Assembly: GCA_007376445.1 (NCBI GenBank)
Contig: VMGF01000001.1
Coordinates: 252,203 to 316,202 of the forward strand
Direction: 5' to 3'
DNA length: 64,000 nucleotides
Source of the DNA: Parcubacteria group bacterium Gr01-1014_3
GTDB taxonomy: Bacteria; Patescibacteriota; Minisyncoccia; UBA6257; WO2-44-18
Shown here: piece after piece, positions 3,566 to 62,824 of the stretch
Numbering within the stretch: position 1 is the first letter of the stretch
Layout of the letters: each line of letters begins with the position of its first letter
Program-made: the position numbers and the translations under genes
The notes under the pieces: model-generated
The model's input: only the letters and a program-made list of their open reading frames with translations
The model's database searches: none
Told to the model about the DNA's origin: nothing

Positions 3566-4276
3566 TTAACGAATTATTAGGTTGGTTGAGGCCGAAGCGC
3601 TTTCGAGAGCTTGGCGGATATTTTGCGCGCTGGCCTCGAGTTTAACTGAAGTTCCTCTCGATAGTCCCCGTGTATCTAAGTCTAGTATATTCGATGCATT
3701 TTCCTCGGTAGCAGCGCCGTTGGCGGTCCAAGTGAAGTTGATCTGATCTAGCCCAGTAATGTTAAAGAAATAAAGGAGCGTTTTTATCGGATTAAGTCCG
3801 GCGGATATTAAATTACCTGGAAATGGAGCATCAATCACCAGTTCCGGATTAACTATCGGCACGGTGATAGTTTTGGATACATCATTACCCTTATAGCCAA
3901 CTACGACTGCCTGAACCGTGGCGTCACCTCTTAGAGAGTCAGCTATGAAAGAAAAACTACGCAATCCCCTGCCCGATTGTCCTAGTTCGTCATTGACGTA
4001 CCAGCGGATCGTATATGGCGCGAGATCAACGAGACGATTATTTTCCAAGAGATCTACGCCGGCCACTACACGCGCTCCGTTAACTGGCAGGACTTTCCCG
4101 GCGTAATCCGGCGGAACGCTATTGCCCGCTTTCCAGCTGAGGAGAAGCTCTGGCGCCTGCTGGGCGGTAGAAGAATTAGGAATCAAGAATAAAGAATAAA
4201 GAATAAATACAATAAAAATTAACCCATAATTCTTGATTCTTGATTCTTGATTCTTAGCCACTGATTCTTGATTCAT
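3566..4276 (-). CDS. Secreted hypothetical protein (T4SS-like locus)
   Basis: It has an N-terminal hydrophobic segment. Its 5' end is built from (aagaatc)n heptamer repeats and their inverted copy. Confidence 0.45.
   Translation of the reverse strand: MNQESVAKNQESRIKNYGLIFIVFILYSLFLIPNSSTAQQAPELLLSWKAGNSVPPDYAGKVLPVNGARVVAGVDLLENNRLVDLAPYTIRWYVNDELGQSGRGLRSFSFIADSLRGDATVQAVVVGYKGNDVSKTITVPIVNPELVIDAPFPGNLISAGLNPIKTLLYFFNITGLDQINFTWTANGAATEENASNILDLDTRGLSRGTSVKLEASAQNIRQALESASASTNLIIR
4178..4273. repeat. (aagaatc)n heptamer tandem repeat with inverted partner (gaatcaagaataaagaataaagaat ... attcttgattcttgattcttgattctta)
   Basis: Perfect 7-bp periodicity. It overlaps the 5' end of ORF 3566..4276. 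Confidence 0.6.
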
Positions 4277-4284
4277 AATTCTGT

Positions 4285-4656: not shown

Positions 4657-4680
4657 GTGAGTAATGAATTATTTAAATAC

Positions 4681-4745
4681 TAATTTTAAATTTTGAATTA
4701 TAAATTTTAATTTAATTTAAAATTGAAAATTTAGAATTTATAATT
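4681..4745. repeat. AT-rich (aatttta/gaaaatt)-type periodic repeat block, intergenic
   Basis: taattttaaattttgaattataaattttaatttaatttaaaattgaaaatttagaattta. Partially palindromic. Confidence 0.5.
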
Positions 4746-6474
4746 ATTTGTTTTCCAATATCTGTTCCGGCTTGGTGGTGATCACCTGGTCTTCCCCATA
4801 CGAAGCTACTATCTGGATAGCCACGTGATTCAAGCCGGCGAAAAACAAACCCAATCCGATCTCTGCCTGAAGCAGAAGGTTTTTTTCGGCTTCGCTGAGA
4901 TTAAAAGTTTTCGCTACGCTATCGATCATCGCCGGAGATTGTTTCAAAAGAAGCTGCATTGAAGAGTTGGTGATGATCGGGCGGCCGAATGGCGAGCTCA
5001 AGAAGTCTTCCACGTCTTGAGTGATAGTGCTGATGCCGAGGAAATATTTTCTGGCTCTCTTTACCAGGGCGAACAAGAAAGAAGCGCCATCCGGATATTT
5101 CATCATCCACCAGGCCTCGTCGATAATCAGAACACGGCGTTTTAATTGAGCGCGGACGATATTCCAAATGAAGTTGAGTACGATATACATCGCGATCGGA
5201 CGAAGTTCGTCCTCAAGGTCACGGATCGAAAATACTACAAGACGATTTTTGACATCAATATTGGTCGGCTGATTAGTGAAGCCAGCATAACTTCCTTTGG
5301 TGAAGCGATAAAGACGTTCGGCGATCTCGCGGCCGCCCTCCATATTTTCTAAAACAGCCTGCAGGTTTTCCATGAGTGGCGGCCTGGCGGTCGAGAAATC
5401 TTTACCAGGCACGATATCAAAAGCCGCGTAAGTTTCTGAGATTGCGCGGTCCAGCAAGGCTTCTTCTTGCGGATTGATCTCGCCAAGCATCAGTTTTACT
5501 AAACCGGTCAGATTTACCACGTGAGACTTCAAAACATCCGCCGGATCTTCACCTTGCGGGATCACCGGAATATCAAAAGGGTTGATGTGGCTTTGCGAAG
5601 CTAACGAAATCTTAAAGAAGCTCCCACCCACCACATTAGCCAGCTGTTGATATTCATTTTCCGGATCAATAATCAAAACATCGGTGCCAGTCATCAAAAG
5701 ACGAAGCGCTTCGAGTTTGGTGGCGTAAGATTTACCGGCGCCGGATTTGGCAAAGATGACCATATTGGCGTTTTCGAGCGAGAAGCGGTCAAAGATGATG
5801 AGGGTGCTGTTGTGGCGGTTAATGCCGTACAAAATTCCTTCATCCGAGGTTAGTGTGGCCGAGACAAACGGAAAGAACGAGGATAATGGGCTGGAATTGA
5901 GCGGGGTGTGAATGTCCAGCTGGTCAGTGCCGAGTGGTAGAACCGAAGAGATGCCTTCGATCTGCTGGAAAAGCGCCGGCTTAGCGTAAACCAACTTACT
6001 TTCCAGGACATAAGTGATCTCGGACTCGAGTTTATTCAGATTTTCGATGGTGTCGGCATAAAGCGTGATATAAACTCCGACATTAAAAAGGTGCTCTTGT
6101 CCCTGCTGGAGAGAATCTCGGAGCGCTTCGATGTCTTGAATGGCAGTTTCTAAGACCGGATTCCGGACTAAGCCCTTCTCTTGCTGTTCAGCGATCTCCG
6201 CCTCCACGATGGCGGCTTTTTTACGGAGATTTTTGAGCGCCATCGGCGTGTCCACCGGATGAACGACGACGGAGATATCTAAAAGATTCGGCAGATTGAT
6301 GATCGGCGAGAACCAACCGGTCGAGAGATAACGAGGATAGGTGAAAATAAAAAGCGTCTTCGCGAATTTATTGCCGAGCTTCACATAATTCGGATTTACC
6401 TCAATAGCCGGTGGGGCGATGATGTTTTTTATTTCTTGTTCCATTATTTTATTGCGCTGGTTCGGCTCGGGCAA
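4744..6474 (-). CDS. VirB4/TrbE/CagE-like type IV secretion ATPase
   Basis: Walker A (FAKSGAGKSYATK) and Walker B (RVLIIDEAWWMM) motifs in a protein of about 576 aa. Gene order and size match VirB4-like ATPases of Gram-positive/CPR T4SS-like loci. Confidence 0.8.
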   Translation of the reverse strand: MPEPNQRNKIMEQEIKNIIAPPAIEVNPNYVKLGNKFAKTLFIFTYPRYLSTGWFSPIINLPNLLDISVVVHPVDTPMALKNLRKKAAIVEAEIAEQQEKGLVRNPVLETAIQDIEALRDSLQQGQEHLFNVGVYITLYADTIENLNKLESEITYVLESKLVYAKPALFQQIEGISSVLPLGTDQLDIHTPLNSSPLSSFFPFVSATLTSDEGILYGINRHNSTLIIFDRFSLENANMVIFAKSGAGKSYATKLEALRLLMTGTDVLIIDPENEYQQLANVVGGSFFKISLASQSHINPFDIPVIPQGEDPADVLKSHVVNLTGLVKLMLGEINPQEEALLDRAISETYAAFDIVPGKDFSTARPPLMENLQAVLENMEGGREIAERLYRFTKGSYAGFTNQPTNIDVKNRLVVFSIRDLEDELRPIAMYIVLNFIWNIVRAQLKRRVLIIDEAWWMMKYPDGASFLFALVKRARKYFLGISTITQDVEDFLSSPFGRPIITNSSMQLLLKQSPAMIDSVAKTFNLSEAEKNLLLQAEIGLGLFFAGLNHVAIQIVASYGEDQVITTKPEQILENK

Positions 6475-13021: not shown

Positions 13022-13846
13022 TTAGAAATGATTTGCTAGGGTTTTTAACATATCAATATCGAGATTTTGGGGGCGAATGTCGGGTTTTAGGCCTATTTGT
13101 TCGAGAATTTTAGTAATTTCAGCCTTATTTTTACCAAGCCCTTCGGTTTTACTCAGGGCAAGTCCCTCAGATAAGTTATTCAGCAGGGTCTTTCTAGGCT
13201 GCTTAAAAGCGATTTTTATGAATTTATAGTATCGTTCCGCCTCCTTGATTCTTAATTCTTGATTCTTGATTCTTAATGTTATTATTGCCGAATCAACTTC
13301 CGGCGCCGGATCAAAATCGGTGGATTTCAGATTCATCAGGATCTTCGGTTCAGCCCAGAACTGCGTGGCGGCCGAAAGCAGATTCATCCTGGGTGGTTCG
13401 GCAATTATTCTTTCCGCAACCTCTTTTTGGATCATTAAGATGGTGAGTGCCGGTTTTCCGCCAGCTGGCGGATTCAGTTCGCTTAATACGCGCAGCAGTT
13501 TTCCGGTGATATAGTAAGGGATGTTTCCAACCAGTTTCCAGTTGTCAGTTTTCAGTTTTTCAGTTAAATCGGGGAGAATTTTTAATGCATCGCCTGTCAG
13601 TATTTCAAACTGATTAACTGTAGCGCTAGCGTAACTCATTAACTGATTCGCTAAACGCGCGTCTTTTTCGATACCGATGAAATTACAACCGACTTTTCGG
13701 CATTCTTCGATCAGAGGAATGGTTAACGCTCCCTTGCCCGGCCCGACCTCGATGACGGTTTCGCCAGTTTTCAGCTCTAAAGACGCGATTATCTTTTGGA
13801 TCGCGGCTTTATTTTTTAGGAAGTGCTGACCTAGTTTTTTTGGCAT
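13022..13846 (-). CDS. rsmA: 16S rRNA (adenine1518/1519-N6)-dimethyltransferase
   Basis: N-terminal KKLGQHFL motif and a SAM-binding VIEVGPGKGALT motif. It contains an in-frame (ttcttga)n repeat encoding RIKNQELRIK. Confidence 0.85.
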   Translation of the reverse strand: MPKKLGQHFLKNKAAIQKIIASLELKTGETVIEVGPGKGALTIPLIEECRKVGCNFIGIEKDARLANQLMSYASATVNQFEILTGDALKILPDLTEKLKTDNWKLVGNIPYYITGKLLRVLSELNPPAGGKPALTILMIQKEVAERIIAEPPRMNLLSAATQFWAEPKILMNLKSTDFDPAPEVDSAIITLRIKNQELRIKEAERYYKFIKIAFKQPRKTLLNNLSEGLALSKTEGLGKNKAEITKILEQIGLKPDIRPQNLDIDMLKTLANHF

Positions 13847-14252: not shown

Positions 14253-16094
14253 TTACCAAGTATCTTCGATATACGAATCTTCTTCGTTCGGAAGATTGTT
14301 TTTGTTGCCGCTGAGGTCGGCAAATTCGGTCAGTTCCGGCGGAATTTCATACACAAATCTTGATGGAATGTGCGTAAAAGTGAGGCAGAGCCGTTTTCTT
14401 GCGCGAGTCATGGCCACGTACATCAGACGCCGCTCTTCCTCGATTTCATCCAATGATCCATAGGACATTTGATGGGGCAAAAGGCCTTCATTACATCCCA
14501 TTACGTAAACTTGGTCGAATTCCAGGCCCTTGGAGAGATGAATGGACATGAGATGGACAGGGTTTAGGGTATAGCGATTAGCGTTTAGGGATTCATTGGC
14601 CGGCATATCGTTGGCTTGTAGCAATAGCACCCGTTCCAAAAATTCCGGCAAGGATTTAAATGTGCCGGCAAAAACTATTAACTCGTTTATGTTTTCAGTC
14701 CTCTCTTTTACATTGTCGAATTTTTTTCCGAGGTGATCAAAGTAGTTGGTGTTTTCCAGGAAATAATTTATCAGTTCTAGGATCGAGAGTTTTTCGCCGA
14801 GGCGCTGAAGCTCCCCGATCAGCTCGCCGGTGATCTTTTTCGGAAAAGTTTTTTCCAGGCGGTCAATGCTGACACTATCCTTCGGATTGGAAGCAACGCG
14901 TAAACCGGCAAGAATATCTTTTACCTCTTTTCTTTGATAAAAACGCAGTCCGCCGAAAATTTTATATGGAATCTGGTTCATGATCAGCGATTGCTCGATC
15001 GCGCGGGATTGCGCGTTGGTCCGGTAGAGAATGGCCGTAGTTTCACTATGACCATGACTATGACCAATGACCAATCCTTGTTTTTTATTGTCATTGTTAT
15101 TTGTCATCGTCAAGATGTTTCTTGCGACATACCGCGCTTCCTCATCGGCGTCATAAGCCTTAACAACCCAGATCGGATCTCCGGCCTCATTATCGGTCCA
15201 AAGAGTTTTCGGAGTTTGCATGGAATTTTTCTTGATCAGCGCTGAGGCGGCGTTAATAATGTTGGCGGTAGAGCGGTAATTTTGCTCCAGCTTTACGATT
15301 TTCGCCTTCGGCCAGTCCTGTTCGAAGTTCAAAAAATTGCGGAAGTCCGATCCGCGGAAACGATAAATGCTTTGCGCGTCATCGCCGACGACGCTGATAT
15401 TTTGGTGTTTTTCAGCGAGCAAGCGGATCAGGCGATACTGGCTGGTGTTTATATCCTGATACTCATCTACCAGGACCTGTTGGAAGCGGTTTTGATATTT
15501 GGTTAAGATTTCCGGATGATCCTCAAAAAGACGCACCGGTTTTTCTATGAGGTCATCAAAATCAAAGGCATTATTTTCCCTAAGAGCTTGTTCGTATTTA
15601 TTGAAAAGATGAATGAGCTGCGGCTCCAGATATTCTTTGGGCGCGATCAGTTCATTTTTTATTGAGGAAAATTTATTCTGAAGCTTTATGGGATTGGCGG
15701 CCTCCTTGGAAATGTCCAGCTGTTTCAAAATTTGGCGGATTAAACTTAAGGAATCGTCGTTATCATAAATCGTGAAGTAAGCGTTCCGGCCGAGTAGCTT
15801 CGCCTCTTCTTTCAAGATTCTTACTCCCAGCGAATGGAAAGTACCTATAAACAAATTTTCAATTTTCAATTTTAAATTTTCAATTCGGTTTCGCATTTCA
15901 TTGGCGGCTTTATTGGTAAAGGTTATCGCGATGATGTTGGCCGGGTTTACTCCCCGTTCGATGATCTTCATCAGGCGAGTGGTTAGGGTCTTGGTTTTGC
16001 CGGAACCAGCGCCGGCGGCGATCAAAATAGGCCCATTTCCATGGTCTACAGCCTCTTGCTGCCTGTCATTCAGTCGATTGTTATTTTGCTCCAT
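14253..16094 (-). CDS. ATP-dependent DNA helicase, UvrD/PcrA/Rep family
   Basis: It carries helicase motif I (AGAGSGKT), motif II (DEYQD) and the rest of the motif series. Internally there are an in-frame (aattttc)n repeat (RIENLKLKIENL) and an (atgacca)-like repeat (GHSHGHS). Confidence 0.85.
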   Translation of the reverse strand: MEQNNNRLNDRQQEAVDHGNGPILIAAGAGSGKTKTLTTRLMKIIERGVNPANIIAITFTNKAANEMRNRIENLKLKIENLFIGTFHSLGVRILKEEAKLLGRNAYFTIYDNDDSLSLIRQILKQLDISKEAANPIKLQNKFSSIKNELIAPKEYLEPQLIHLFNKYEQALRENNAFDFDDLIEKPVRLFEDHPEILTKYQNRFQQVLVDEYQDINTSQYRLIRLLAEKHQNISVVGDDAQSIYRFRGSDFRNFLNFEQDWPKAKIVKLEQNYRSTANIINAASALIKKNSMQTPKTLWTDNEAGDPIWVVKAYDADEEARYVARNILTMTNNNDNKKQGLVIGHSHGHSETTAILYRTNAQSRAIEQSLIMNQIPYKIFGGLRFYQRKEVKDILAGLRVASNPKDSVSIDRLEKTFPKKITGELIGELQRLGEKLSILELINYFLENTNYFDHLGKKFDNVKERTENINELIVFAGTFKSLPEFLERVLLLQANDMPANESLNANRYTLNPVHLMSIHLSKGLEFDQVYVMGCNEGLLPHQMSYGSLDEIEEERRLMYVAMTRARKRLCLTFTHIPSRFVYEIPPELTEFADLSGNKNNLPNEEDSYIEDTW

Positions 16095-17144: not shown

Positions 17145-17160
17145 GGGCTCCAGACAACTA

Positions 17161-17292
17161 CTTTTTCGAAAACAGAATAATCCGGCTCCAGCAGCCGGAT
17201 TTTCTTCGCCCTCGGCACGCCGGTCCGACCTTTTGGTCGGACACCGATCTTAGGATAGACCAGCCGGCGCGCCTCCGGGATGTTCCGAAAAA
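17161..17292. repeat. GC-rich structured repeat element, copy A (bidirectional terminator hairpin plus structured module closed by a long-range helix)
   Basis: About 85% identical to 43939..44071. Helices are maintained by compensatory changes (outer helix tttttcg/cgaaaaa here versus cctcttt/aaagagg in copy B). Confidence 0.6.
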
Positions 17293-17341
17293 TCAGTTGT
17301 CCTCCGCTTTGTTAACTAAATGAAAGATTTTTATATAAAAA

Positions 17342-17385
17342 GCCCCCATTCTGTTTAACAGAATGGGGGCGATGTTTTATTTCGT
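17342..17385 (-). terminator. Rho-independent terminator (hairpin gcccccattctg-tttaa-cagaatgggggc plus T-run), serves the minus gene 17377..18228
   Basis: A 12-bp GC-rich stem with U-runs on both strands. Confidence 0.6.
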
Positions 17386-18228
17386 TTCTCGAATTACCAT
17401 TTCGACCAGCACTTCTTCGTAGTGACCGATCAATCCGGCAGCGCGTCCGAGCATGGCTCGGTAGGTGTTATGCCATCCCGGACGTTGGCTCGCGTTGATG
17501 ACCATGCCGTAGCAGGTCTCGAACCGATCCAGAAATTTATACACCGTTCGGCTGATGAAGATGAAACGCTTGATCAGAAGCTTCTGCTCTTCGTGGTTAA
17601 GCGCCGGTCCATCTTCGAGCTCTTTGGCGAGGATCATTTCCTTAACGAACTTGCTCAGCTCGCCAATCACATCGCCGAGACCCGCCAGCCAGCCTGGGAA
17701 TGGGATGCTCAGCTTGTGATGCCGCTCTTCGGGAGGCAGAGCTTCTTCGGTTGATACCAGTTCGTCGAGACTATCATCAGCTTTCGGATCCCCCATCTTG
17801 TACCAGAGATTCTGAAGAACTTCCTGGGTCCGCTTTTGGATCGTTGCCCGGTCTTGGGCATACTCGGGATGCAACAGCGGCACAAGATGAAAAACTCCCT
17901 CGGCCTCCACTACTTCGCCACCGGATTCGGTGTCCTTTTCAGAGGCGAAGTGCAGGGGTAGATCAAGGTCCGAAAGCTCTTTCCAAAGGTCTGCGAAGAT
18001 CTGTCGGAATTCGTCAGCCTTGCTAAGGTCACCATACTTCAGAGCCTTGATAAATTCTTTTGAGGTTTTGACCAATAAGTTCGCGACCGCGTAAGATCCG
18101 CCGATATCACGGCGCTGCTGCTCCGACTTGTCTTGAATGCTTTTCGAAATCCGATCGATATCATCGATTACCGGATTGCCCATGAGCGTAAACAGACGCT
18201 CTTCAAGCTCTCGCATTTGTCGAACCAT
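17377..18228 (-). CDS. Hypothetical protein, elevated GC (second gene of the GC-rich pair)
   Basis: A 283-aa ORF with a taggagc RBS before the ATG. No recognisable domain. Confidence 0.5.
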   Translation of the reverse strand: MVRQMRELEERLFTLMGNPVIDDIDRISKSIQDKSEQQRRDIGGSYAVANLLVKTSKEFIKALKYGDLSKADEFRQIFADLWKELSDLDLPLHFASEKDTESGGEVVEAEGVFHLVPLLHPEYAQDRATIQKRTQEVLQNLWYKMGDPKADDSLDELVSTEEALPPEERHHKLSIPFPGWLAGLGDVIGELSKFVKEMILAKELEDGPALNHEEQKLLIKRFIFISRTVYKFLDRFETCYGMVINASQRPGWHNTYRAMLGRAAGLIGHYEEVLVEMVIRETK

Positions 18229-22325: not shown

Positions 22326-22407
22326 AAAAACGCAAGATAATTTTAAATTCTCAATTTTAAATTTGAAATTAAATTAAAATTTATAATTAAAAATTTAAAA
22401 TTAAAAA
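22326..22407. repeat. AT-rich (aatttta/aaaattt)-type periodic repeat block, intergenic
   Basis: ataattttaaattctcaattttaaatttgaaattaaattaaaatttataattaaaaatttaaaattaaaaaa. Confidence 0.5.
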
Positions 22408-22424
22408 ACCCCTGAAAACCAGGG
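22396..22424 (-). terminator. Rho-independent terminator after the CPBP gene 22432..23256
   Basis: Stem cccctg/cagggg followed by TTTTTTAATTTT on the minus strand. Confidence 0.5.
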
Positions 22425-43316: not shown

Positions 43317-43928
43317 ATGACCAATAAACAAGAAGTTAGGAACGACTACCTGATCCCGACGGTTATCGAGAAGGTTGCCGGAGGTGAGCGGGCTTTTGAT
43401 ATTTATTCTCGCTTACTGAAGGAACGCATCATCTTTTTAACCGGTCCTATCAACGATGTAGTAGCCAACTTGGTTATCGCTCAATTACTTTTCCTGGAAC
43501 ACGAAGATCCGAAAAAGGATATTAAACTGTACATCAACAGCCCGGGTGGTTCAGTGACGGCTGGTATGGCGATCTATGACACGATGCAGTATGTAAAACC
43601 GGATGTTTCCACGATTTGCGTGGGAATGGCGGCTTCGATGGGCGCGGTATTGCTTGGTTCTGGCGCCAAGGGAAAGCGTGTGGCTTTGCCGAACGCGGAA
43701 ATCTTGCTTCACCAGGTAATGGGAGGCGTGGAAGGTCAGGCGAGCGAGATCGAGATCACCGCTAAGCAAATCATTAAGATGAAGGAGCGTTTGAATAATG
43801 TGCTTGCTAAAAATACCGGTCAGTCACTTTCTAAGATCGAAAAAGACACCGATCGCGACTTTTATATGACCGCGGCGGAAGCCAAGGAGTACGGGTTGAT
43901 CGACGAGATCATCAAAGGAAAGAAGTAG
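43317..43928 (+). CDS. clpP: ATP-dependent Clp protease proteolytic subunit
   Basis: Active-site region [11 protein letters not shown], a His in LHQVMGG, and overall ClpP length and layout. Confidence 0.9.
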
Positions 43929-43938
43929 GTTCGAGCAT

Positions 43939-44071
43939 CCTCTTTCCGGAAACAGAATAAAACGGCTCCAGCGGCCGTTTTTTCTTCGCCCTCGGCGCGC
44001 CGCTCCGGCTTAAGTCGGAGACCGATTATAGGAGAACAGCCGGCGCGCCTCCGGGATGTTCCGTAAAGAGG
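43939..44071. repeat. GC-rich structured repeat element, copy B
   Basis: See copy A at 17161..17292. It includes the bidirectional terminator acggctccagcggccgt plus T-run, a GGCGCGCC core, and the closing helix cctctttccgg/ccgtaaagagg. Confidence 0.6.
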
Positions 44072-44105
44072 ATACTCTCAACTCGGTGAATTAAATGTGG
44101 TAAAA

Positions 44106-44134
44106 TTGACAAAATAGGGTATTTGTCTTAGAAT
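44106..44134 (+). promoter_or_regulatory. Promoter TTGACA-17-TAGAAT for ORF 44186
   Basis: Consensus -35 element with 17-nt spacing, followed by a 5'UTR hairpin aatcggga-atgg-tcccgatt. Confidence 0.55.
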
Positions 44135-44185
44135 ACGACTAGCTAAATCGGGAATGGTCCCGATTGTTTACAGCTTCAAAGGAGG

Positions 44186-44992
44186 GTGAAGGTGGTTGAC
44201 CTTACTAGGGGCGGGGCGCTGACGCGATTTCTTGATGAATTTTCATTCCCTCAGATTCGGGGTTTAATGAAATTCTTGGCCTCCAGCAGTTCCGAAAATA
44301 ACGACAGGGCGTATTTTCAGCTAATGTCTGTGGGCTCCGATGCGCATTTCACTGAATCATTATCTCTGCCAAAAGTGTTCAGATCTTTTAGTCTCAGCTT
44401 TTGTCAGATCAGGCAGGATGGTCAGGTTAAAGAGTACATTACCGAAGAAGACTTTAATAAAGCGGCATCTATTATCAATTCTCTATTTGATACGAAAAAG
44501 ATAGCTTTATCAGAAGAGCCTAAGGGCAAAAGAAAAAATCCGGTTTGCGCGATTATCGCCGCTAAAGGCGGTAAATCCGATATCGTTGTTTGGAATCCTC
44601 TAACCGGAGAAGTAGTGATCTCCAATCATGCCTGGCGTCGATTCTTGGAGAGGTTTTATAAGATGACGCGCAAAGAGGCCAAGGCCAACAAATTTTCCGA
44701 AGATGAGCTCGTGAAACTTCAATCAAGCTTTCTCAAGGCCAAAAAGACCAATCTTTCTGAAAGAGTCGCCTTTGGCAGGTTGTTAAATAATGGCGTTAAG
44801 CCAGCGACCTATCTTTACAATCAGAAAGATAATCTGCGGTTTATCGTTATTGATCAAGGCGAGACAAAGCTACTTGTCACCGCTGAGGATCCCTATCATC
44901 GTGGCAAAAAGCCTATCGAGGCGCCTAGCGAGTGTGATTTACCTGATTACATGCAGCGTTATTTCGAAAAAAAGAAAGAGCTTGACTCATAA
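44186..44992 (+). CDS. Hypothetical protein (268 aa)
   Basis: GTG start following aaggaggg. A strong terminator (acagcccacctgggctgt plus T-run) follows. No domain recognised. Confidence 0.5.
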   Translation: MKVVDLTRGGALTRFLDEFSFPQIRGLMKFLASSSSENNDRAYFQLMSVGSDAHFTESLSLPKVFRSFSLSFCQIRQDGQVKEYITEEDFNKAASIINSLFDTKKIALSEEPKGKRKNPVCAIIAAKGGKSDIVVWNPLTGEVVISNHAWRRFLERFYKMTRKEAKANKFSEDELVKLQSSFLKAKKTNLSERVAFGRLLNNGVKPATYLYNQKDNLRFIVIDQGETKLLVTAEDPYHRGKKPIEAPSECDLPDYMQRYFEKKKELDS

Positions 44993-47053: not shown

Positions 47054-49423
47054 ATGTCACCACAGAAGAAAAAAATCACAAGCAAAATAGTGAAAATATT
47101 GAAATTCGGCGGCTCATCCGTTGGTTCGGCTGAGCGGATTAAGAATGTATGTAGAATTATTTATAATTCTACCCTGAGCTTGTCGAAGGGCGCCCGAATC
47201 GCCGTGGTAGTTTCGGCAATGCAAGGAGTAACCGACAAGCTTTTGGCTTTAAAGATCAAAGAAGTAAAAGAAATTCATCAAAAAGCCGCCGCTGAGCTGA
47301 AAGTGCCTTTCCCGGCGTTCATTTTTCAAGAATTAGAAGCGGTGGAGAGCGGCGCCCGGATGCTTGGCGACTTCTCTCCGATGGTGATGGATCGGGTGGC
47401 GAGTTTCGGCGAGCGATTGTCGGCGGCCTTAGTGGCTTCCTATTTACATAAAAAACTACCGGCGGAAGCCTTGGACGCGCGCGAGGTGGTAAAAACCGAT
47501 AACAATTTTCAAAACGCGGCCGTGGATTTCCCGGCGACCAATCGTGCAATTCAGAATTATTTTAAAAAACATCCGGCAGTCCAGGTAATTACAGGATTTA
47601 TCGGTTCCACTAAAGATAATAAAACCACGACCCTCGGCCGCGGTGGTTCAGATTATTCCGCGGCGATCTTCGGCGCGGCGCTTGGCGTGGAAGCGATCGA
47701 GATTTGGACGGACGCCAACGGAATTTTGAGCGCCGATCCGCGAGTTGTCCCGGAGGCTAAGACTTTACCGGCTGTGAGCTATGAAGAAGCTTTTGAGATG
47801 GCGTACTTTGGCGCCAAGGTTATTCATCCGGCCACGATGGTGCCGGCGATTAAAAAAAGTATTCCGATCGTGATTAAAAATACTTTTAATCCGGCGCATT
47901 CCGGTACATTCATTGGAAATCGAAAATTGAAAATTGAAAATTCTGGTAGTCCCGCTAAGAACATTTCTTCACTTGATGGAATGGCTTTAATTACGGTGGG
48001 CGGTACGGATCTCGCTGGCGTGCCTGGTACGGCGGAGCGGGTTTTTCGCGCGGCAGCTAAAGAAAAAGCCAATATAGTCTTAATTGCCCAGGCTTCTTCC
48101 GAGCACACGATCTGCTTCGCGGTAAAGGAAACGGAAGCGGAACGAGCTATTCGCGGCTTGAAAGCGGAATTTGATCTCGAAATTGGCCGGGGGAAGATGT
48201 CGATAGAAGTTCGTAAGGGCCAGAGCGTAGTAGCGGTAGTCGGTGACGGAATGCGAGGCGTTCCAGGAATCTCCGGTAAAATTTTTGATGTATTGGGCAA
48301 AGAAAAAATTAACGTTAATGCTATCGCTCAGGGCGGCTCAGAGAAAAATATTTCATTAGTAGTTCAAGAAAGCGATAAGGCGGTGGCCGTGCAGGCAGTT
48401 CACCGGATTTTGTTTGAAAAATCATTAACACCGGCTATTTTCATTATCGGCGCCGGCAATGTTGGCGGGGAGCTTCTTAGACAGCTTAATGAAAGAATCA
48501 AGAATCAGGAATTAAGAATCAGGATTTGTGGAATTGCCGATTCAAATAAAATGCACCTTGAGGAAGGCGGCATTGATTTAAAAAATTGGAAAAAACCGCT
48601 GGCCGCATCCGCAACCAAAATGAACCTGGATAATTTCTTAAAGGAGGTTCAAAAAAACAGGTCGGATAAGAAAGTTTTAGTGGATTGCACGGCGAGCGAA
48701 CCGATCGCGAAAAGATATTCTGAATTCGTGGCGGCGGGGTGCGATATCGTGACTCCGAATAAAAAGGCCAACGTGCTCCCGATGGCGAAATATACTGCTT
48801 TCCGGAAAGTTTTGGAAAAATATGGAAAAACTTTCCATTATCAGGCCAATGTCGGCGCCGGGTTGCCGGTTTTGGACTCGGTAAAAGGTTTAGTATCGGT
48901 GGGCGATAGCATAAAAAAGATCGAGGGAATTTTCTCTGGTACCTTGAGCTACCTTTTTAATAATTTCGATGGTAAGAAAAAATTCAGCGAACTGGTTTTG
49001 GATGCGAAAGCGAAAGGCTATACCGAGCCGGATCCGAAAGAGGACCTGAGTGGGCAGGATGTTGGTAGGAAACTTCTGATCCTGGCGAGAGCTACTGGCC
49101 TACCGGCTGAACTTTCGGAGGTGGTTTTAGAAAATCTGGCTGAATATAATGATCAGCAGATGGCGAATAAGCTGAAAAAGGCTAAGGCCAAGAAGTGCGT
49201 CCTACGATATGTTGGTTCTGTACAAGGTGGTCGGTTATCCGCTAAATTAAAGGAGATTCCGCTAGATAACCCATTAGCCCATGTAAGCGGAGCCGATAAT
49301 ATAGTCGCAATCTATAGCGGGTACTATAAAAATCAGCCGTTGGTCATAAAAGGGCCTGGCGCCGGAGCAGAAGTGACCGCTGCGGCCGTGTTGAGGGGTA
49401 TTATAAGAGCAATTCAAAATTAA
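47054..49423 (+). CDS. thrA: Bifunctional aspartokinase / homoserine dehydrogenase
   Basis: N-terminal aspartokinase (KILKFGGSSVGS), ACT domains, and a C-terminal homoserine dehydrogenase Rossmann fold (IIGAGNVGGELL). The start is likely ATG 47054; the listed ORF starts at 47018. It contains in-frame (gaaaatt)3 and (aagaatc)n repeats. Confidence 0.8.
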   Translation: MSPQKKKITSKIVKILKFGGSSVGSAERIKNVCRIIYNSTLSLSKGARIAVVVSAMQGVTDKLLALKIKEVKEIHQKAAAELKVPFPAFIFQELEAVESGARMLGDFSPMVMDRVASFGERLSAALVASYLHKKLPAEALDAREVVKTDNNFQNAAVDFPATNRAIQNYFKKHPAVQVITGFIGSTKDNKTTTLGRGGSDYSAAIFGAALGVEAIEIWTDANGILSADPRVVPEAKTLPAVSYEEAFEMAYFGAKVIHPATMVPAIKKSIPIVIKNTFNPAHSGTFIGNRKLKIENSGSPAKNISSLDGMALITVGGTDLAGVPGTAERVFRAAAKEKANIVLIAQASSEHTICFAVKETEAERAIRGLKAEFDLEIGRGKMSIEVRKGQSVVAVVGDGMRGVPGISGKIFDVLGKEKINVNAIAQGGSEKNISLVVQESDKAVAVQAVHRILFEKSLTPAIFIIGAGNVGGELLRQLNERIKNQELRIRICGIADSNKMHLEEGGIDLKNWKKPLAASATKMNLDNFLKEVQKNRSDKKVLVDCTASEPIAKRYSEFVAAGCDIVTPNKKANVLPMAKYTAFRKVLEKYGKTFHYQANVGAGLPVLDSVKGLVSVGDSIKKIEGIFSGTLSYLFNNFDGKKKFSELVLDAKAKGYTEPDPKEDLSGQDVGRKLLILARATGLPAELSEVVLENLAEYNDQQMANKLKKAKAKKCVLRYVGSVQGGRLSAKLKEIPLDNPLAHVSGADNIVAIYSGYYKNQPLVIKGPGAGAEVTAAAVLRGIIRAIQN

Positions 49424-51623: not shown

Positions 51624-52881
51624 CACCAACGGAAAATCCAAGCCGGTGGATTTTAAAACCGCGCTTTTACGTGGTTTGGCGGAGGACGGGGGACTCTACA
51701 TGCCCAACGAGTTGGGCAATTTTCAATTTTCAATTTCTAATTTTCAATTTTGGAAGATTTTAAAAAACTTTATAGATATTCCAGAAAAGGATTTAGAAAA
51801 AATCTGCGCGGAAGCATTTAATTTTCCGGTGCCGCTAGTGCGAATAAGCAAAGATATACATGTCTTGGAGCTGTTTCACGGCCGAACACTTTCCTTCAAA
51901 GATTTCGGCGCGCGATTTATGGCGCGAGTGATGGATTATTACATGAGAATAAAGAATCAAGAATTAGGAATTAAGGAAAAATTAAATATTGTTGTCGCAA
52001 CCTCGGGCGACACAGGGAGCGCCGTGGCCAACGGATTTTATGGTTTATCCAACATCAAAGTCTTTGTTTTGTATCCGAGCAAACGGGTGAGTGAGCTGCA
52101 GGAAAAACAGATGACGACTTTAGGAAAAAATATCGTAGCCTTGGAGGTACAGGGTGACTTTGATGATTGTCAGCGTCTCGCCAAGCAAGCCTTGGCCGAT
52201 TCGAATCTGAGAAAAGAGAAAAATCTTTCTTCGGCGAACTCTATAAATATTGGCCGACTTTTACCGCAGATGTTTTATTACTTTGAAGGCGTAAAACAAC
52301 TTGGTAAACAGGCGGTGTTCGTGGTGCCAAGCGGGAATTTCGGCAATCTGACTGCCGGTTTGTTTGCCAAAAATTTAGGTTTGCCGATTGAGCGGTTTAT
52401 CGCGGCCGTTAATATCAATTCCGCTATCCCCCGTTTTTTGGAGTCTGGCAAAATGGAAATTCGCAAAACACGTTTAACGCTCTCTAACGCGATGGACGTC
52501 GGAAGCCCCAGCAACTGGGCTCGGATTGCCGATTTATATGAGGGAAATCGGGAAAAAATTCAGAAAGATATTTCGGCAGTTACGATCAGCGAAGAAGAGA
52601 CGCATGAAACAATTAAAAAGGTTTACCAGGAGTTTGGCTATATAGCCGATCCGCACACGGCCGTTGGTTTGGCGGCGGCGATGAAAGATACAAGCCGATC
52701 TCCAAAAATAGTCTTAGCGACCGCTCACCCGGCTAAATTCAAAGAGACCGTGGAAGAAGCAATTGGAAGCAAAATCAGTTTGCCACCCGCCTTATCTAAA
52801 CTACGTGGAAAAACTAAAAAAAGCATAGTAATCGGTAAAAACTATTCGGAATTATACTTACAACTTACGACTAATAACTAA
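51610..52881 (+). CDS. thrC: Threonine synthase
   Basis: PLP-lysine region LELFHGRTLSFKDFGARFMA and a glycine-rich SGNFGNLTAG loop. Its N-terminal variable region contains the (aattttc)5 repeat. Confidence 0.85.
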   Translation: MLFYSTNGKSKPVDFKTALLRGLAEDGGLYMPNELGNFQFSISNFQFWKILKNFIDIPEKDLEKICAEAFNFPVPLVRISKDIHVLELFHGRTLSFKDFGARFMARVMDYYMRIKNQELGIKEKLNIVVATSGDTGSAVANGFYGLSNIKVFVLYPSKRVSELQEKQMTTLGKNIVALEVQGDFDDCQRLAKQALADSNLRKEKNLSSANSINIGRLLPQMFYYFEGVKQLGKQAVFVVPSGNFGNLTAGLFAKNLGLPIERFIAAVNINSAIPRFLESGKMEIRKTRLTLSNAMDVGSPSNWARIADLYEGNREKIQKDISAVTISEEETHETIKKVYQEFGYIADPHTAVGLAAAMKDTSRSPKIVLATAHPAKFKETVEEAIGSKISLPPALSKLRGKTKKSIVIGKNYSELYLQLTTNN

Positions 52882-57008: not shown

Positions 57009-57081
57009 GGGTGCGTAGCTCAGTGGTTAGAGCAGTCGTCTTATACACGACCGGTCCCTGGTTCGAATCCAGGCGCACCCA
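57009..57081 (+). tRNA. tRNA-Ile with unmodified-type anticodon TAT (UAU)
   Basis: Acceptor gggtgcg/cgcaccc, D-arm gctc-agtggttag-agc, anticodon stem gtcgt/acgac with loop cuTATac, and T-arm cctgg-ttcgaat-ccagg. It is preceded by an extended -10 motif TGcTATAAT. Confidence 0.7.
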
Positions 57082-57096
57082 CTCAAAAGATTTTTC

Positions 57097-61768: not shown

Positions 61769-62824
61769 ATGAAAATCTTATCTATCGAAACGAGTTGCGA
61801 TGAGACCTCGGTCGCTTTAGTTGAGGCGAAGGGCGGATTAAAATATCCGGAGTTTAAGGTTATCGAGAATATCGTCTCCTCGCAGATCGCCGTGCACCGG
61901 CCATTTGGCGGCGTGGTGCCTAATCTCGCCAAGCGGGAACACCTTAAGAATCTTCCTAAGATTCTACAAAAATTGAAAATTAAAAATTTAAAATTTAAAA
62001 TTGATGCCGTCGCGGTCACCGTTGGCCCCGGTCTCGAACCGGCGCTTTGGACCGGAATCGAATATGCCAAGCAGCTATCAAAGGATTTAAATAAGCCGCT
62101 TATCGGGGCGAATCATATGGAGGGCCACCTATATTCTAATTGGTTACCGCGTAAGATTGCCGCGCTTGCTTCTACGCGTAGAAGCGCTCGCAATGACGGA
62201 ATACGATTCCCAGCGATTGCGTTGGTGGTGAGCGGGGGACACACGATACTTTTGAAAATGGATTCGCTGACCAAGTGGAAAAACTTGGGCGAAACGCTTG
62301 ATGACGCGGCTGGAGAAGCTTTTGATAAAGTCGCGCGAATGTTGAAGTTGCCATATCCGGGCGGGCCAGAAATTCAAAAACTAGCCCTTCGACAGGCTCA
62401 GGGTAAACATCCGAAAGGCACGATCAAGTTCCCACGGCCGATGTTGCGAGACGATAATTATAAATTCAGCTTCTCTGGATTAAAAACCTCCGTGCTTTAT
62501 TATCTTCGCGATAATCCGAAAGCTAAAAAAGAAGATGTGGCGGCCTCATTCCAGCAGGCGGTTCTGGATGTGCTGGTTGGTAAAACCATGCGCGCGGCCA
62601 GAGCGTACCGCGCGAAATCGGTTTTGCTTTGCGGTGGCGTGTCGGCCAACGTGGCATTGCGGGAATCTTTGAAAGAATCAGCAGAAAAATATGGCATGAA
62701 ATTTTTTGTGCCGGAATTTGAATATAATACCGATAACGCGGCCATGATCGCCGCCGCGGCGTATATTCAGTATTTAAGAAAGAAGAAGTTAAAACTGGAA
62801 GCAAATTCAAATTTAAGTTTATAA
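61769..62824 (+). CDS. tsaD: tRNA N6-adenosine threonylcarbamoyltransferase TsaD
   Basis: Motifs LSIETSCDET and HRPFGGVVPNLA, plus a His-rich metal site (NHMEGH). The start is set at ATG 61769; the listed ORF start at 61748 overlaps tRNA-Glu. A linker region contains the (gaaaatt)-type repeat. Confidence 0.85.
   Translation: MKILSIETSCDETSVALVEAKGGLKYPEFKVIENIVSSQIAVHRPFGGVVPNLAKREHLKNLPKILQKLKIKNLKFKIDAVAVTVGPGLEPALWTGIEYAKQLSKDLNKPLIGANHMEGHLYSNWLPRKIAALASTRRSARNDGIRFPAIALVVSGGHTILLKMDSLTKWKNLGETLDDAAGEAFDKVARMLKLPYPGGPEIQKLALRQAQGKHPKGTIKFPRPMLRDDNYKFSFSGLKTSVLYYLRDNPKAKKEDVAASFQQAVLDVLVGKTMRAARAYRAKSVLLCGGVSANVALRESLKESAEKYGMKFFVPEFEYNTDNAAMIAAAAYIQYLRKKKLKLEANSNLSL

Follow-up and report, generated by a model that had tools for sequence, protein, structure and literature searches.

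Rickettsia palindromic elements (RPEs) are palindromic repeats that lie also in-frame within many genes (PMC10969869). MITEs and the pneumococcal SPRITE are short, mostly intergenic repeats whose transcripts fold stably, and SPRITE resembles a Rho-independent terminator (PMC10969869). Here we describe a folded repeat family of about 150 nt, previously uncatalogued, that belongs beside these elements. One member, copy B, lies directly behind the clpP gene in the 64,000-nt stretch of DNA analysed here (the window).

With RPEs the repeat shares a palindromic form of ~100-150 bp, a reduced host genome, and positions both between genes and in-frame, where the encoded peptide segment is compatible with the fold. 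No transposase is known to be linked to RPEs. The host phylum is another one, however, and where an RPE is a simple hairpin the element described here is a three-way junction with a closing stem unique to each copy; covariation and strand-specific wobble also set it apart, even in orthologous copies inside genes. We use the RPE name as an analogy, and a sequence relation is no part of our claim.

REP and BIME sequences are intergenic palindromes that follow genes in either orientation and are mobilised by RAYT; REPs are simple hairpins of 20-40 nt with a GTAG motif. The present element, in contrast, measures about 150 nt and has three helices, and no RAYT gene was seen nearby. Its core is found at the tip of another palindromic 'shell' repeat, a nesting that recalls the insertion of IS1397 into REP loops. 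The likeness to SPRITE lies in a hairpin, P2, that resembles a terminator. Intrinsic terminators need neither conserved flanking arms nor a spanning closing stem, however, and the element has both. The two features that define a MITE were not found here: no direct repeats or target-site duplications were seen by eye in the flanks of 46 copies after outward extension of the closing stem, and no terminal inverted repeats are conserved between copies. Unlike a MITE, moreover, the element keeps its core over genomes that have diverged deeply: against the trigger factor of the window, theirs reach no more than 54% identity. Because the MITE hallmarks fail and a multi-helix junction covaries strand-specifically, we class the element among the interspersed palindromic repeats, apart from the named kinds. 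The reading that we favour, with a probability of roughly 60%, is that it is a non-autonomous insertion repeat like RPEs, MITEs or SPRITE, whose fold is under strand-specific selection and whose P2 hairpin has probably been co-opted at clpP.

Copies B and A in the window

An earlier note on this DNA had reported a second copy of a structured, GC-rich element right behind the clpP stop codon. Copy B is indeed there, at 43933-44077. The bounds given then, 43939-44071, had the place right, but the real edges are slightly wider: the outermost pairs of the closing stem, P1, join 43933-43935 to 44075-44077. The clpP ORF occupies 43317-43928, and its identity comes from an identical gene in another locus (L082) that contains Pfam CLP_protease. 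A covariance model of the family matches 43925-44089 with 126 bits and E = 1.3e-33. The features of the region are as follows.

43926..43928, plus strand: clpP stop codon TAG, 4 nt upstream of copy B
43933..44077, minus strand (the strand that apparently folds): copy B, entire element, a three-way junction closed by P1
43933..43951, minus strand: P1 arm on the clpP side, GAGCAUCCUCUUUCCGGAA on the plus strand; its partner is 44059-44077
43954..43985, no strand assigned: P2, with the hairpin core at 43959-43981 and AGAA/UUCU pairs that extend the hairpin
43989..44055, minus strand: P3/P4 arm, made up of P3a, P3b, P4 and an internal loop
43989-43991 with 44053-44055: P3a, CCC with GGG
43994-44002 with 44041-44049: P3b, GGCGCGCC(G)
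44003-44020: P4 hairpin
44021-44040: internal loop of copy B, in place of the family's usual ACCAAGC
44059..44077, minus strand: P1 arm on the side of ORF 44186, UUCCGUAAAGAGGAUACUC on the plus strand
44106..44134, plus strand: promoter-like TTGACA-17-TAGAAT, outside copy B and directed away from it
17154..17300, minus strand: copy A, which follows a LysM/M23 peptidase gene; 120 bits

The outer part of P1 is unique to copy B, and the inner CGGAA(A)C/GUUCCG is kept throughout the family. The arm at 44059..44077 takes part in a C·A mismatch when the plus strand is read, which becomes a G·U pair in the minus-strand reading. The conserved loop of P2 reads CUCCAGCG on the plus strand, that is, CGCUGGAG on the minus strand; with an A-tract ahead and a U-tract behind, the hairpin has the look of an intrinsic terminator on either strand, and a scan flagged the minus-strand form. 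The sequence GGCGCGCC occurs twice (43994-44001 and 44042-44049), as had been reported, and its two copies pair with each other as P3b. The minimum free energy of copy B is -69.5 kcal/mol on the plus strand (z = -4.5) and -73.3 kcal/mol on the minus strand (z = -5.6); none of 200 shuffles was as stable.

The promoter-like site ascribed to ORF 44186 was also recovered, with 11 of 12 matches. Copy B lies upstream of it, again in line with the earlier note, and is therefore no leader of ORF 44186, an ORF that matched no Pfam family. We rejected a riboswitch or leader of this ORF on the position of the promoter-like site and on the varied contexts of the other copies. Nor do the copies as a whole hold the constant place upstream of one gene class that marks riboswitches and leaders, since their orientation is mixed and no neighbour recurs.

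A repeat search and the covariance model found exactly one further copy in the 64 kb, copy A, 26 kb away. The E-values of the two copies are about 1e-33 and 1e-31. They are 83% identical over their alignment, and where their stems differ, in P1, P2 and P4, the differences are compensatory. The match of copy A, the compensatory stems and the fold together confirm that the element is real. Copy B has the housekeeping genes tig, clpP and tyrS as neighbours. Both copies have the same genome-specific type of P3/P4 arm and unrelated P1 stems; the P1 type of copy A (GGGCUC...CCUCCGCUUUGU) is shared by copies elsewhere (L030, L037 and L042) and recurs in other genomes joined to different P3/P4 arms. 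Such a mosaic of P1 and P3/P4 types suggests exchange between copies.

What might copy B do for clpP? The hairpin at 43959-43981 is followed by UUUUUUCUU and has a dG of -10 kcal/mol, and so shows the sequence features of an intrinsic terminator. Its core begins 31 nt past the clpP stop codon and, with its U6 run, it is the only terminator-like structure before the next promoter; P2 therefore probably ends the clpP transcript, in agreement with the earlier note. The hairpin and U-run would thus have been co-opted at clpP as a terminator that insulates the gene from the next promoter. The terminator look is not family-wide, however. Variants in the locus L087 have no U tract, and the copy in L088 retains a strong P2 inside nifS. 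These two cases, with covariation that extends past P2, make the terminator role look like a local co-option and not the purpose of the family. Across copies, the stability of P2 bears no clear relation to genomic context, and its differences are lineage-specific.

A repeat family of Patescibacteria

The earlier note had left it open whether copy B is transcribed independently as a small RNA, is appended to a 3' end or works at the level of DNA. The present evidence goes beyond all of these, to a large family of interspersed repeats in Patescibacteria, some of whose members lie in-frame inside genes. Two independent patterns and the covariance model found more than 50 relatives, every one in Patescibacteria genomes or groundwater metagenomes. 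The first scan, with a two-block pattern over one genome per species, returned 30 loci. True relatives among these genome contigs were only L003, L014, L018, L024, L028 and L030, the remainder being chance matches in GC-rich genomes. Five were confirmed by BLAST: a Candidatus Harrisonbacteria MAG and a Hainich aquifer 'Patescibacteria group' MAG have two each, and a Saccharibacteria-labelled MAG has one; L003, from an unclassified bacterial MAG, was added later by the covariance model. The second pattern, built on different conserved blocks and scanned against metagenomes, returned 50 loci and about 40 further relatives, mainly from Hainich groundwater. About eight of the metagenome loci were dismissed: L039, L054, L056, L060, L064, L066 and L075 are chance matches and L078 is a degenerate copy. 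The sole viral match (L081, on the same contig as L056) is likewise a chance match, and phage and plasmid collections held no similarity to the element. As far as sampled, then, the family is confined to Patescibacteria (CPR). The window belongs there too, given the matches of its trigger factor, which is at most 54% identical to any protein-database entry and whose best named matches are Patescibacteria, Paceibacterota and Harrisonbacteria. Loci that bear the element have one copy per roughly 5-30 kb.

The repeat matched no known RNA family in Rfam. Rfam 15, run over the whole window at the gathering score, returned seven tRNAs and nothing at the element. At E <= 10, the region 43850-44200 gave two matches at chance level that flank or graze copy B, of which SNOR75 (44058-44135) overlaps its last 20 nt; four more loci with seven copies gave tRNAs only. 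As far as the literature could be searched, it describes no CPR RNA motif or palindromic element relevant to the repeat. To our knowledge there is no evident likeness to the hammerhead, twister, K-turn, SRP Alu or 5S RNAs. Several other candidates failed. A small ORF starting from the conserved GGGAUG was rejected on reading the sequences, as its peptides differ wholly among copies. Within the window, targets for the P1 arms as antisense guides did not exceed chance 11-mers, and the element ends, read by eye, have no GTTRRRY core of an integron attC site, a kind of site that also suits neither the housekeeping neighbours of copy B nor the 26 kb between copies A and B.

The family fold is a three-way junction consisting of a long closing P1, a P2 hairpin and a variable P3/P4 arm. 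RNAalifold recovered P1, P2 and P3 from 40 distinct members, with compensatory change in 29 of 41 pairs. The covariance-model alignment contains 58 matches, 52 of them distinct. Standard pairs fill 95.8% of its cells, two-sided changes occur in 47 of the 49 modelled pairs, and none of 500 column shuffles attained these values; when partner columns were slid by 1-3 positions, pairing fell to 36-50%. Compensatory change extends to all 18 pairs of helices 1-2 (P1) and all 13 of helix 7 (P2). In the main type the junction helices are near-invariant (GGAAAC/GUUCC, AGAAUAA/UUUUCUU, CCC/GGG); in the divergent members L087, L003, L035, L034 and L079 they covary as well. The fold is under strong selection.

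Conservation is unevenly spread along the helices. The outer part of P1 differs from copy to copy, conserved purine loops interrupt the stem, and only its inner ~10 nt are common to the copies (YUUUYSGRAAAC / GUUCYSRAAAR). The outer stems are often perfect and unique to their copy; those of L032 and L036, for instance, reach 23 bp. The P2 hairpin is flanked by A/U-rich sequence and has a conserved loop, and the P3/P4 arm carries a conserved internal loop. Three unpaired stretches stay fixed, given here as read on the minus strand: CGCUGGAG in the loop of P2, GCUUGGU in the internal loop, and CGNAG/CGAG in a loop that separates P3a from P3b. Some 55 positions are all but invariant in the family. 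Relative to the outer shell, the core of L050 is flipped with respect to that of L041.

Copies occupy non-orthologous intergenic sites in either orientation, and they also lie in-frame in conserved genes. Three copies fall within 2 kb in L034; L035 has three, L036 two (its contig also gives the L074 copy), and L079, L003 and L087 two each. In L034, L035 and L036 the 2-3 copies lie inside 8-14 kb. Within the nusA-PPase-tig-clpP-tyrS block, a copy after clpP is found only in the window. A Harrisonbacteria genome (L087) has copies in two other spacers of this block, and L083-L086 have none in about 20 kb each. No protein family recurs among 152 flanking ORFs, no transposase is found among them or in the annotated loci, and the copies are linked neither to a reverse transcriptase nor to any other partner gene; RVT_1 genes do occur in related genomes, though not adjoining copies. 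The lack of a linked partner gene, of target-site duplications and of conserved terminal inverted repeats counts against an insertion reading.

How are the copies placed with respect to transcription? Of the 52 distinct copies, 19 receive read-in from a neighbouring gene antisense to the folding strand, nine in sense and three from both sides; for the other 21, no gene reads in from either side within 200 nt. A promoter scan anchored on MFE-extended stems proved too noisy and was replaced by a consensus scan. The latter found a sigma-70-like promoter into the folding strand in only four of 48 copies, all weak, which counts against a minus-strand RNA, although little is known of promoter types in CPR bacteria. 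On that same side an outward promoter-like site lies within about 90 nt in 17 of 48, which is the layout of copy B, and eight of 48 have a promoter directly after the other end of the element. By these counts the usual layout is gene, element, promoter, gene.

Copies inside genes and the folding strand

In L057 and L079 the element lies within an Aminotran_5 ORF, which encodes a NifS-like cysteine desulfurase, and the frame stays open throughout. NifS-like homologues range from 377 to 493 aa in length. An insert (FQKQNNFAPAAKFSSPSAR...APAG...LNQK) stands at the same site in eight rows of their alignment, which represent seven distinct sequences, P0124 being equal to the L079 protein; it is missing from five rows. 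The DNA of four further insert carriers contains the element, with scores of 112-141 bits. It is present in six nifS orthologues and absent in five others, L092 and L093 among them. Comparison with solved structures bears out the insertions: residues 91-145 of P0121 are unmatched between residues 94 and 100 of 9wep_A, an insert of about 50 residues, and the MnmA of L045 has 49 extra residues between residues 146 and 153 of 2der_A. The repeat is therefore found between genes and in-frame in unrelated conserved ORFs, the pattern of RPE-like coding insertions.

Is it the peptide or the nucleic acid that is conserved? Across the nifS orthologues the element is 69-84% identical, against 46-56% at third codon positions, so that purifying selection on it is stronger than at synonymous sites. 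In P2 of these copies UUUUGC/GCAAAA shifts to CCCCGC/GCGGGG, and the peptide changes from NF..AK to NP..AG. Compensatory stem changes that force such radical residue swaps place the constraint on the nucleic acid, not the peptide. Long-lasting retention and purifying selection at one orthologous nifS site are unusual for selfish DNA and could mean a host-level RNA function.

The nifS copies also tell something about their boundaries. Their 5' outer P1 arm consists of native codons (AVKKFD in L079, AKNFG in L057) that align with a solved homologue, ...GVAKNF in the query against ...GIAKAY in the chain. The 3' arm is the reverse complement of those codons, and both arms have changed jointly between L057 and L079. 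At the same site the uninterrupted nifS of L092 retains no more than an inverted repeat of 11 bp around a 7-nt loop, and that of L093 has no trace of the element. These boundaries fit insertion at the centre of a quasi-palindrome, growth of a palindrome by copying of the flank, or deletion of a central core.

The strand that folds had been taken in the earlier note to be the plus strand. Here the evidence from stability, wobble pairs and G·A loops goes the other way, favouring the minus strand, antisense to clpP. The minus strand (in the sense of the window) is the more stable one in 38 of 40 copies, by a mean of 7.2 kcal/mol, and in all six copies inside genes. An alignment fitted to the minus strand has 95 G·U cells against 20 A·C at near-even base composition; when a second model and its alignment were fitted to the plus strand instead, P1 showed A·C over G·U by 55 to 8 and C·U over G·A by 21 to 0. 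This bias does not depend on whether there is sense, antisense or no read-in from a neighbouring gene. From stability, both wobble counts and this independence of context, it follows that the structural constraint is on the minus strand. About 12 bp from the junction, P1 is broken by a conserved symmetric loop, which reads UC/UC on the plus strand. On the minus strand it reads GA/GA, a common stable RNA motif.

In the nifS and mnmA mRNAs the element stands in its plus orientation and is read in one and the same frame, so that there too the folding strand is antisense. Selection is thus strand-specific and acts on the strand that lies antisense to the adjoining or host gene; at clpP this is apparently the minus strand of the window. 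We also considered the outer P1 as an older terminator of the neighbouring gene and rejected it, as the wobble bias tracks the orientation of the core and not the neighbour. Finally, GC skew is positive on the plus strand of the window, and the nifS copy of L091 lies just right of the dnaA/rpmH divergence. Together these place the folding strand on the leading-strand template, which disfavours an IS200/IS605-style single-stranded DNA route by way of the lagging-strand template.

Candidate explanations

The best account may be that the element inserts non-autonomously, in the manner of RPEs, MITEs or SPRITE. Its active form would be single-stranded, either minus-strand RNA or minus-strand DNA copied from read-through host transcripts; both the mobility and the single-stranded intermediate are what we infer. 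We consider it unlikely that the fold is more specifically the working part of an RNA-based, CPR-specific element, acting as a catalytic or protein-recruiting minus-strand RNA or moving through minus-strand cDNA. In the first version such an RNA would be made antisense to host genes. In the second, the plus strand would be co-transcribed with host genes and copied into minus-strand cDNA, which would fold into the three-way junction and integrate. This retro-mobile route would account at once for three things: copies co-oriented 2:1 with host transcription, the lack of a promoter of their own, and selection that acts on the antisense strand even within essential genes.

The competitor to which we give most weight, though we hold it doubtful, is a multi-copy class of small RNAs or ribozymes transcribed independently from the minus strand, with the copies inside genes as tolerated by-products. 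P1 would be processed, for example by RNase III, and the conserved loops (CGCUGGAG, GCUUGGU, GNA/GA and tandem GA) would make up an active site or a binding site for a protein. Very strong covariation and about 55 nearly invariant nucleotides speak for such an RNA, as do the strand-specific wobble bias with its tandem G·A motifs, typical of RNA, and purifying selection beyond the level of synonymous sites. Also in its favour, 40 of the 52 distinct copies have no gene reading in sense and would need their own transcription; a promoter-like site upstream in the sense direction, however, is present in just four of 48. It also fits poorly with in-frame copies in essential-type genes, with non-orthologous positions even among related genomes, with the blank result of the Rfam ribozyme and sRNA models at E <= 10, and with a terminator-like P2 that precedes the 3' arm of P1. 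That P2 invites the opposite view, in which the plus-strand RNA simply serves the gene upstream, either as an elaborate Rho-independent terminator or as a stabilising part of its 3' UTR. Copy B, beginning 4 nt past the clpP stop and bearing a U6 run after P2, would suit this role, and in a first context pass the plus orientation was co-directional with the upstream gene in 19 of the 33 copies for which an upstream ORF was called, the stop codon mostly abutting; the outward promoter-like sites within about 90 nt in 17 of 48 copies agree. We nevertheless judge it quite improbable. Strong covariation extends to the P3/P4 arm and to P1 on its 3' side, both of which a transcript that ended at P2 would lack, and the wobble bias is for the opposite strand in every context class. 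In that first pass about six copies lay between outward-pointing genes and about eight had read-in only in the minus direction; by the model-based count, read-in is in sense alone for nine and lacking within 200 nt for 21. Copies within coding regions, one with a strong P2 (L088), and the L087 variants that lack a U tract point the same way.

The least probable of the readings, in our estimate, dispenses with RNA altogether: the palindrome would be kept at the level of DNA alone, by template-switch ('quasipalindrome') correction or as the single-stranded substrate of a HUH/RAYT-type transposon. The perfect outer stems unique to single copies (23 bp in L032 and L036), the joint change of both nifS arms between L057 and L079 with the 3' arm complementary to native 5' codons, the flipping of core against shell between L050 and L041, and the 11-bp inverted repeat in L092, such as central deletion of a palindrome would leave, would all be at home in it. 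Template-switch correction, however, yields Watson-Crick pairs only, and leaves the 55:8 asymmetry in P1 and the tandem G·A loops unaccounted for. A transposon substrate is at odds with the lack of a transposase gene near any of the copies, and the folding strand, by GC skew and by nearness to the origin, belongs to the leading-strand template. We therefore keep to the reading of a non-autonomous insertion repeat whose fold is under strand-specific selection.

A large part of bacterial diversity lies within the Patescibacteria, whose genomes are tiny and which have barely been studied by experiment. A 150-nt element kept at high density in genomes of that size is unlikely to be neutral. The analysis delivers a structured-RNA candidate, in the form of two covariance models (R1 and R2) and about 50 sequences. 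Because the elements inflate protein lengths and mimic terminators, they are also a warning for the annotation of CPR genomes. They provide a second, independent case of the 'coding palindrome' phenomenon, hitherto tied to Rickettsia.

Sequences joined to the element

Some loci carry a second palindromic repeat, here called the shell. At its centre is a hairpin, preceded by UUCAACCCGCUCAC and followed by UGCGCUUCCGUUUAGGUUUCAG; the two arms of a unique inverted repeat enclose these parts on the outside. The shell occurs without the element, with only a small hairpin in its centre (locus L067, ~2251-2350); in L032, L036 and L041 it surrounds the core, and the three-way-junction element sits at its tip. 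In L050 the core and the shell have the opposite relative orientation to that in L041.

Element and promoter can also be fused: in four copies (L048 331-360, L046, L053 and L035), all from one Hainich H51 assembly, a strong TTGACA-17/18-TATAAT-type promoter starts on the terminal base of the element, which serves as its initial T. The element ends in ...GAGCCCU, and the promoter points onward in the direction of the strand inferred to fold. In another locus, L034, two element copies flank a region (5415-5680) that begins with a TTGACA-16-TATAAT promoter, continues with a GC-rich, ORF-free stretch of ~230 nt and ends in a terminator hairpin. It looks like a non-coding RNA gene; an Rfam search of the region gave no match.

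In the window, the spacer that separates copy A from the convergent ORF 17377-18228 contains a 13-bp GC-rich bidirectional terminator hairpin (17342-17370). The spacer therefore has a terminator-like structure besides copy A.

Reverse-transcriptase ORFs and a tRNA

Two loci syntenic with the window contain RVT_1 (reverse-transcriptase) ORFs of 331-357 amino acids.

RVT_1 ORFs in syntenic loci
L084 8984-9979
L086 15537-16610

The L084 ORF occupies precisely the space from clpP to tyrS that in the window is taken up by the element and ORF 44186. A covariance-model scan of L084 and L086 did not find the element.

The window also encodes a tRNA-Ile with the anticodon UAU (57009-57082, called by ARAGORN). 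This anticodon is uncommon in bacteria for AUA, which is usually read by a lysidine-modified CAU anticodon.

Repeats and inserts in NifS homologues

Alignment of the NifS-like cysteine desulfurases shows further lineage-specific in-frame inserts in P0129 and P0131, at the loop that receives the element and at two other loops. Examples are 'GVDPVRSLARAVGASPKDFGEATSN' and a ~45-amino-acid insert in P0131. These inserts may be other repeat families.

Inserts in P0129 and P0131 (NifS alignment columns)
~120-160
220-245
300-350

In many intergenic regions of the window, and in both orientations, a repeat search found AT-rich sequence that repeats every 7 nt, as (AATTTTC/AATTTTA)n and (AAGAATC)n.

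7-nt-period AT-rich repeats in the window
4171-4284
4668-4759
13229-13277
15851-15885
22336-22408
47901-47942
48493-48536
51715-51757
51932-51988
61961-62004

Repeats of this kind also lie within the genes of NifS homologues, where they are translated in frame. In P0121 the product is 'NFQFSISNFQ' (residues ~221-250), a segment that is surplus relative to solved structures; the L079 homologue has two copies of 'NPQSSILN'. These translated copies suggest that the element is joined by another class of repeat able to enter coding sequence.
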